Assembly (NCBI RefSeq): GCF_003334355.1
Contig: NZ_QOWP01000020.1
Reading direction: 5' to 3' (one strand)
DNA length: 64,000 nt
DNA from: Escherichia coli
Lineage (GTDB): Bacteria > Pseudomonadota > Gammaproteobacteria > Enterobacterales > Enterobacteriaceae
Part shown: positions 20,924 to 21,905 of the stretch, piece by piece
How positions within the stretch are numbered: the stretch's first letter is position 1
Layout: the number at the start of each line of letters is the position of its first letter
Program-made: the position numbers and the translations under genes
The notes under the pieces: generated by a model
The model's database searches: none
What the model was told of the DNA's origin: nothing
Seen by the model: the letters and a program-made list of their open reading frames with translations, nothing else

Positions 20924-21905
20924 ACTGAAGCGCCGGTTCCACATCTACCGCCAGCCAGGTCGGTCCGTCAAGATCGGCGAAACTGACCTGCGGCACCAGC
21001 GGTAAAGCGGCGCTAATGGCACGAGAGGTACACAACATGCAGCCCAGCATCAGACTGAAACCTTGTGCACGCGCTTCAGTCGCCAGCGCCAGCGCTTCCG
21101 TCAGACCCCCGGTTTTATCGAGCTTAATATTAACCATCTCATAGCGCCCTTTCAGCGCCTTCAAATTGCTACGAGTATGACAACTTTCATCAGCACAAAT
21201 CGGCAACGGATGAATAAAATTCTCCAGCGCCGCATCGTCCTGCGCAGGAAGCGGTTGTTCAAGCATCGCAACGCCTAAATCCGCCAATAGCTGGCAACGC
21301 GCCGCCAACCCTTCTGCACGCCAGGATTCATTTGCATCAACGATCAGCGTCGCATCGGGCACAGCTGTGCGAATTGCCACCATCCGCTCACTGATAAGAT
21401 GGTTATCCAGCTTCACTTTCAGTAATTTCGCGCCTGCCTGCCAGAGTGTTGATGCACTATTGGCCATCTGATCAGGCGTACCGATGACAACCGTCTGTGC
21501 AGTGATAACTGTCTCGGGAAGCGTTATGCCGATCAAATCAGCCAGCGATTGCTGCTATCTTCGCGCGGCCAGATCCCACAATGCACAATCCAGCGCATTA
21601 CGTGCTGCGCCGGCAGGGAGAATTTTTTGCAACTCCTCCCGTGTCAGCCCTTTCTCTAGTTGCGGCACGACGCTCATAATTTGCGCCATTACCGAGGCAT
21701 CACTTTCCCCATAACGCGGATACGGCGTGCATTCGCCGGTGCCTTTAATACCCTCTTCTTCCAGTTCAACCACCACCACGCGCGCTTCACTGCGACTTCC
21801 CCGGGCAATCACAAACGGGGTATGTAAGGGCCAGGCTTCCTCGAATACCTTAACGGTTCTCATCTTTACTCCTTGTTGTCGCGGTGGTCTGCGGATTAAG
21901 CGCAA
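20898..21905 (-). pseudogene. ycjG: L-Ala-D/L-Glu epimerase YcjG interrupted by an in-frame amber codon
   Basis: N-terminal 116 codons (21558..21905) end at TAG (plus-strand cta at 21555-21557). The same frame continues QQSLADLIGITL... to the normal C-terminus (20898). Intact K-12 YcjG has Gln at this codon by my recollection. Confidence 0.8.

Follow-up and report, generated by a model that had tools for sequence, protein, structure and literature searches.

An amber codon interrupts ycjG, the gene for L-Ala-D/L-Glu epimerase, in a 64,000-nucleotide (nt) stretch of Escherichia coli DNA (the window, hereafter). The locus raises the question of whether this stop is a genuine, inherited mutation and, if so, whether it silences the enzyme or leaves it some function.

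An amber codon replaces Gln103 of ycjG

Direct reading of the minus strand (window 20700-22100) gave the codons GCC GCG CGA AGA TAG CAG CAA TCG CTG GCT GAT TTG ATC GGC ATA ACG CTT, in which TAG occupies 21555..21557, exactly where an earlier note on this DNA had placed it. The ycjG frame (20898..21863, minus strand; 321 codons), now a pseudogene, is identical to that of K-12 and to the sequence of PDB entry 1JPD except at codon 103. Compared with K-12 MG1655, there is one mismatch in the 968-nt gene region (99.9% identity), as there is for many other E. coli, and this sole nucleotide change in the gene is C to T on the coding strand (i.e., G to A at plus-strand position 21557), turning the wild-type CAG (Gln103) into a premature TAG. 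Likewise, Q103* is the only amino-acid difference between the ycjG of the window and the YcjG of K-12 and strain PSS-12 (WP_001261211.1). Downstream of TAG, 218 codons run uninterrupted, via QQSLADLIGITL, up to the native stop at 20900..20898. The earlier note had further claimed that the frame continues to the native C terminus and that a single CAG-to-TAG transition accounts for the stop; both claims stood, and in the comparison of ycjG alleles across E. coli that it had proposed, all close relatives have CAG. An in-frame stop within an otherwise identical orthologue is no matter of chance, and the combination of a premature in-frame stop, relative to full-length orthologues, with a colinear remainder of the frame is that of a pseudogene.

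One claim of the earlier note, that YcjG is truncated after 116 codons, had to be revised. The program-made list of open reading frames (ORFs) divides the ycjG frame into a 116-amino-acid (aa) ORF (21555..21905) and a 212-aa ORF (20898..21536), both with a TTG start, and the figure of 116 counts from the upstream in-frame TTG at 21905, which lacks a Shine-Dalgarno (SD) sequence (+1.2 kcal/mol). In contrast, the ATG at 21863, which is the annotated ycjG start in both K-12 and PSS-12, is preceded by AAGGAG (predicted anti-SD duplex, -8.0 kcal/mol). Because this ATG is the true start, the stop is codon 103 of 321, and the real product is an N-terminal fragment of 102 aa (21558..21863, minus strand) comprising most of the capping domain. 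The remainder of the frame (20898..21536, minus strand), which the ORF list opens mechanically at a TTG (codon 110) and which holds the whole barrel domain, is left untranslated.

The product lacks the catalytic barrel

Conceptual repair of codon 103 yields a 321-aa protein that is identical to PDB 1JPD over 321 residues (E = 2.3e-211) and scores 677.2 bits on the YcjG equivalog model NF011708 of NCBIfam, for which the curated cut-off is 343 bits. The actual 102-aa product scores 206.7 bits, under that cut-off for the whole protein, and the 212-aa fragment alone scores 442.8 bits. The Pfam domains of YcjG are MR_MLE_N (residues 1-112) and MR_MLE_C (residues 132-318), so the stop falls close to where the capping domain gives way to the barrel. 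According to a review of this enzyme family, the active site is in the C-terminal (β/α)7β barrel, between two conserved lysines, with Mg2+. This barrel, with its pair of catalytic lysines and the three carboxylates that bind the metal, is absent from the 102-aa product. In the E. coli enzyme these residues are reportedly K151, D176, E202, D225, and K247 (ascribed to Gulick et al., 2001); the ycjG frame of the window encodes matching residue types there, all of them 3' of the stop. Since the fragment is devoid of the barrel that carries the two lysines and the Mg2+ ligands, the allele is expected to be null.

Set against E. coli K-12 YcjG (1JPD; NF011708; enolase superfamily, muconate-lactonizing-enzyme subgroup), the DNA of the window is the same bar one base, and the tpx-ycjG-mpaA gene order, promoter-proximal region, and SD sequence are all unchanged; it is unlike K-12 in having TAG as codon 103 and a barrel-less product below the family cut-off. 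The position of the locus is also that of YcjG orthologues, i.e., divergent from tpx and convergent and overlapping with mpaA. The locus is ycjG by descent, and its product no longer qualifies as YcjG. A hidden RNA element at the site was considered and rejected, as there was no Rfam match at E ≤ 1 in window 19500-23000. In addition, promoter-like and terminator-like matches near ycjG were at or below shuffle expectation.

The murein-peptide neighbours are intact

Translations of mpaA and mppA proved identical to the K-12/PSS-12 proteins, in agreement with the earlier note, which had described both genes as intact. The murein tripeptide amidase gene mpaA (20195..20923, plus strand; identical to WP_000219122.1) converges on ycjG, with which it shares 26 nt at the 3' end. 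The murein tripeptide binding protein gene mppA (15953..17566, minus strand; identical to WP_000683020.1) and pgrR, the regulator of murein-peptide degradation genes (17903..18802, minus strand; identical to WP_000817708.1), lie nearby. All of the 58 window genes checked are intact except for ycjG, puuC, and puuA.

The basis for a role of YcjG in murein-peptide recycling is, as related in a review, the work of Schmidt et al. (2001). In this established pathway, MppA/Opp imports the tripeptide L-Ala-γ-D-Glu-meso-Dap, MpaA cleaves it to remove Dap, and YcjG epimerises the resulting L-Ala-D-Glu to L-Ala-L-Glu, which a dipeptidase then hydrolyses. This MpaA branch of murein-peptide recycling was reportedly described by Uehara and Park in 2003. 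Without YcjG, the catabolic side branch would end at L-Ala-D-Glu. Because the main Mpl recycling route, which reuses the tripeptide, is untouched, the fitness cost is probably small, and the allele may persist by drift.

In published transcript maps, the pairs ycjG-mpaA and tpx-ycjG are classed as excludons, and mpaA-ycjG-tpx is listed as a "noncontiguous operon." As ycjG is monocistronic and convergent with mpaA, no downstream gene is exposed to polarity. Given the two excludons, an effect of Rho-dependent polarity on antisense interference is conceivable.

Independent assemblies of one clone carry the same stop

The exact 102-aa fragment was present in a collection of 15 billion proteins. 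Contigs encoding it together with the stop came from ERR4578542 (a contig of 63 kb that five samples share), SRR3951466, and SRR25039421/22/23; on all of these, ycjG is identical to that of the window, TAG included, and the contigs match the window at 100.000% identity over 2.6-20.3 kb, along with its other lineage-specific single-nucleotide polymorphisms (SNPs). The runs carrying TAG number at least nine, from three accession series, and the NCBI draft GCA_014464935.1, which shows 100% identity with the window along 25 kb, carries TAG as well. The earlier note had named a sense codon in the strain's own reads as the observation that would overturn its reading; at this position, the read-based run assemblies and the draft all have the stop. 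The variant of YcjW with T230I and R312S, which marks the lineage, occurs on 7 contigs only in the whole collection, one of them being GCA_014464935.1. Because these independent assemblies are identical, the ycjG TAG allele is genuine and inherited within one small clone, as is expected of a heritable pseudogene rather than an artefact.

Codon 102 is also the last complete codon on many unrelated contigs, which led us to suspect within-sample C/T heterogeneity. We rejected this idea, as these contigs finish on wild-type bases ('', 'C', or 'CA'), with the ends distributed over three adjacent positions. The rate of contig ends at codon 102 is similar to that for other partial lengths in the cluster, and we took these to be chance ends gathered by the exact-sequence look-up.

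The stop is a recent change on the window lineage

The window does not come from K-12; the complete genome closest to it is that of PSS-12 (NZ_AP027697.1, a human faecal isolate), with 24 SNPs and 2 indels separating the two over 61 kb. Plus-strand position 21557 is G (codon CAG) in both PSS-12 and K-12, and TAG is thus derived on the lineage of the window. With K-12 as outgroup, 12 changes in ~63 kb are derived on that lineage (1 synonymous, 5 missense, 2 nonsense, 1 frameshift, and 3 intergenic), and 6 of the 11 SNPs among them are GC→AT transitions. Such a pattern is that of a shallow branch that selection has yet to purge. Moreover, since ycjG has no second lesion, the pseudogene is young.

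Several peculiar origins were considered and rejected. The 12 changes, with a mixed, GC→AT-biased spectrum that is neither transition-only nor single-class, do not fit a mutator lineage. A laboratory or engineered origin was dismissed in view of 21 mismatches and one indel relative to MG1655 over window 14750-41866, an intact ycjV, and the absence of IS5. The window has no insertion sequence (IS) and its gene order is colinear with PSS-12, which is not the picture of a Shigella-like, IS-ridden background. Nor is a Dcm deamination hotspot (CCWGG) involved, the contexts being AGACAGC in ycjG and CAGCAGG in puuC.

Other loci in the window also bear on the history of this clone. In puuC (gamma-glutamyl-gamma-aminobutyraldehyde dehydrogenase; 46564-48051, minus strand) there are two internal stops: Q284* (TAA, 47200-47202), common to the window and PSS-12 only among 5,426 complete genomes, and Q325* (CAG→TAG, 47077-47079), specific to the clone of the window and found in 0 of 5,426. 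A 1-bp deletion at ~50092 (TTT→TT) truncates puuA (glutamate-putrescine ligase; 49886-51303, plus strand) to 82 aa; this frameshift is present in GCA_014464935.1 and ERR4578542 and in no complete genome, and PSS-12 has a puuD frameshift in its place. Following the puuC lesion that they share, the two sister lineages appear to be undergoing independent decay of the putrescine-utilisation cluster. The LacI-family regulator gene ycjW (26832-27830, plus strand) bears the two lineage-derived missense changes T230I and R312S, which may affect the ycjM-ompG sugar operon, and is a good marker of the clone. Lineage-derived intergenic substitutions are located at 12403 (ogt-fnr, 63 nt upstream of the fnr start codon), 43959 (pspF-puuE), and 51346 (puuA-ymjE).

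Some further differences concern the reference genomes. Between ycjY and mpaA (19931-20113, plus strand), 60 aa are left of a ymjC-like NmrA/NAD-binding gene; the K-12 and PSS-12 annotations list it as an incomplete pseudogene, and an intact gene of 212-216 aa occupies this place in the more distant E. coli backgrounds L014, L016, and L019. The gene ycjV (28891-29973, minus strand) is intact in the window and PSS-12 and frameshifted in K-12. The IS5 that adjoins ynaI in K-12 is absent from the window (near 14627-14871), as is the IS1203 that interrupts yciW in PSS-12 (near 60580-61710); without IS1203, the yciW of the window is intact, with a derived P298S change. In PSS-12, ycjD (~59033-59374) is annotated as truncated, with the C terminus missing relative to K-12, and the window, in which this stretch is identical to PSS-12, presumably shares the truncated state.

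Comparable nonsense alleles are scattered and rare

The gene ycjG is present in 5,415 of 5,426 complete RefSeq E. coli genomes (99.8%), and the 71-mer of the window around the TAG was found in none of the 5,426. A second haplotype (AAA TAG) is one mismatch away from that 71-mer. It represents a second Q103* allele, with AAA as codon 102, in SRR6072414 and in one of the 5,426 complete genomes, that of the water-buffalo isolate E. coli GXU-23-25-310 (NZ_CM171611.1). Here, too, CAG became TAG at codon 103, and the NCBI annotation (PGAP) gives an "internal stop." In contrast to the window, codon 102 is AAA instead of AGA, the flanks are ~0.8% divergent, and there are 14 nt differences across ycjG (the matching Logan contig). 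Because its haplotype differs, the Q103* of NZ_CM171611.1 is an independent mutation.

Other lineages carry the nonsense alleles W96* (TAG and TGA), R101* (TGA), and Q105* (TAA). This list is biased in its ascertainment, having been compiled via the 212-aa fragment, which is produced only by truncations near codons 95-109. The Q105* allele (CAA→TAA) of NZ_CP025268.1, an MG1655 derivative from Boston, resembles that of the window in that the nonsense codon lies two codons downstream, leaves the same 212-aa orphan ORF, and is annotated by PGAP as an "internal stop." It differs in being ochre rather than amber, in its laboratory K-12 background, and in its native ycjG stop, which has changed from TAG to TAA. 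The tyrR and mpaA products of that genome are also variant proteins, and we take these features together to fit a laboratory lineage that is genomically recoded and deficient in mismatch repair and that carries off-target mutations. The 104-aa ycjG fragment corresponding to Q105* was seen on 31 contigs. All the ycjG nonsense alleles are very rare, each being present in no more than one of the 5,426 complete genomes. In a paper on within-host evolution that names ycjG, the only change given for the gene is a C>T missense mutation and not Q103*.

A spontaneous null allele is the best explanation

We consider it very probable that the window carries a young, lineage-restricted null allele of ycjG that arose by a spontaneous CAG→TAG mutation, has a small fitness cost, and is kept by drift. 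More specifically, a G:C→A:T transition, in an ancestor from which one small E. coli clone recently descended, converted the Gln103 codon into amber, whereupon translation from the normal ATG stops after 102 residues; enzyme activity would be lost, murein-peptide catabolism affected, and the change nearly neutral. It is an ordinary nonsense pseudogene of a non-essential gene, of a known kind, and a stop at this same codon is already annotated as an "internal stop" in RefSeq.

Two other readings seem to us improbable, each to a similar degree. The amber may be leaky or suppressed, being read by a supE-like, Gln-inserting suppressor or by a near-cognate tRNA-Gln at UAG-C, such that ycjG would be down-regulated rather than dead. 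Since the lost residue is Gln, insertion of Gln at the stop would give back wild-type YcjG unchanged; the stop is followed by C, and UAG-C is a weak termination context in E. coli; and puuC Q325* is a second CAG→TAG change in the same clone. Against these points, no tRNA gene is located within the 64-kb window, and background readthrough is normally well under 1%. To our knowledge, natural isolates rarely carry suppressors. Two ambers among two nonsense changes are, moreover, to be expected when mutation is biased towards GC→AT and CAG codons are abundant (a probability of ~0.3 by our own estimate), and puuC had already been killed by the upstream TAA, which such a suppressor could not read. 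As to programmed readthrough, the in-frame stop is not conserved among orthologues, occurring in 0 of 5,426 complete genomes on this haplotype and in 1 of 5,426 on the independent one.

The second of these readings is that inactivation of ycjG was advantageous in the niche of the lineage. One route would be that Rho-dependent polarity lowers convergent/antisense transcription into mpaA and shifts expression of mpaA-(ycjG)-tpx. Several independent nonsense alleles within ten codons, including the second Q103*, would agree with selection for loss, as would the overlapping transcripts reported for the ycjG-mpaA and tpx-ycjG excludons and the decay of another scavenging pathway, puu, in the same clone. 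However, the allele collection could contain truncations at about codons 95-109 only, every allele in it is very rare, and Q105* sits in a laboratory derivative of MG1655. Retention of ycjG in 99.8% of genomes points to purifying selection rather than to selection for loss. We likewise give little credence to a bolder form of these ideas, in which the amber is partly read as Gln, giving low levels of wild-type YcjG, or the truncation was selected for relieving transcriptional interference on mpaA/tpx, and the recurrence of hits at codons 96-105 in lineages that are not related represents parallel adaptive loss.

Still less likely is a split enzyme, in which TTG110 would serve as a restart site and the cap (102 aa) and barrel (212 aa) would come together as an active epimerase of two pieces. 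The proximity of the stop to the domain boundary, the in-frame TTG 18 nt (six codons) downstream, and the score that the 212-aa fragment retains on the YcjG model are consistent with this arrangement. However, TTG is a weak start codon and that at position 110 has no SD sequence (-1.5 kcal/mol, versus -8.0 kcal/mol at the true start), seven residues (103-109) would be lost, and the arrangement is not conserved, being confined to tiny lineages. We know of no such split in the YcjG family. Finally, a sequencing or assembly error in a strain that truly has CAG, to which a one-base difference on a haplotype absent from all complete RefSeq genomes might point, is effectively refuted by the recurrence of the same base, and of the other lineage-specific SNPs, in the independent runs and the NCBI draft described above.

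Implications

In this clone, ycjG should be annotated as a pseudogene ("internal stop," 102-aa product), and the finding has little import beyond annotation. Metabolic reconstructions of the clone should treat the MpaA-YcjG branch of murein-peptide catabolism as interrupted, and the ycjG allele can be combined with the lesions in puuA and puuC as a handy marker set for tracking it. That public data already contain nonsense alleles at most sites in codons 96-105 where one could arise illustrates, on a small scale, that, at current sequencing depth, non-essential core genes are nearly saturated with rare nulls.
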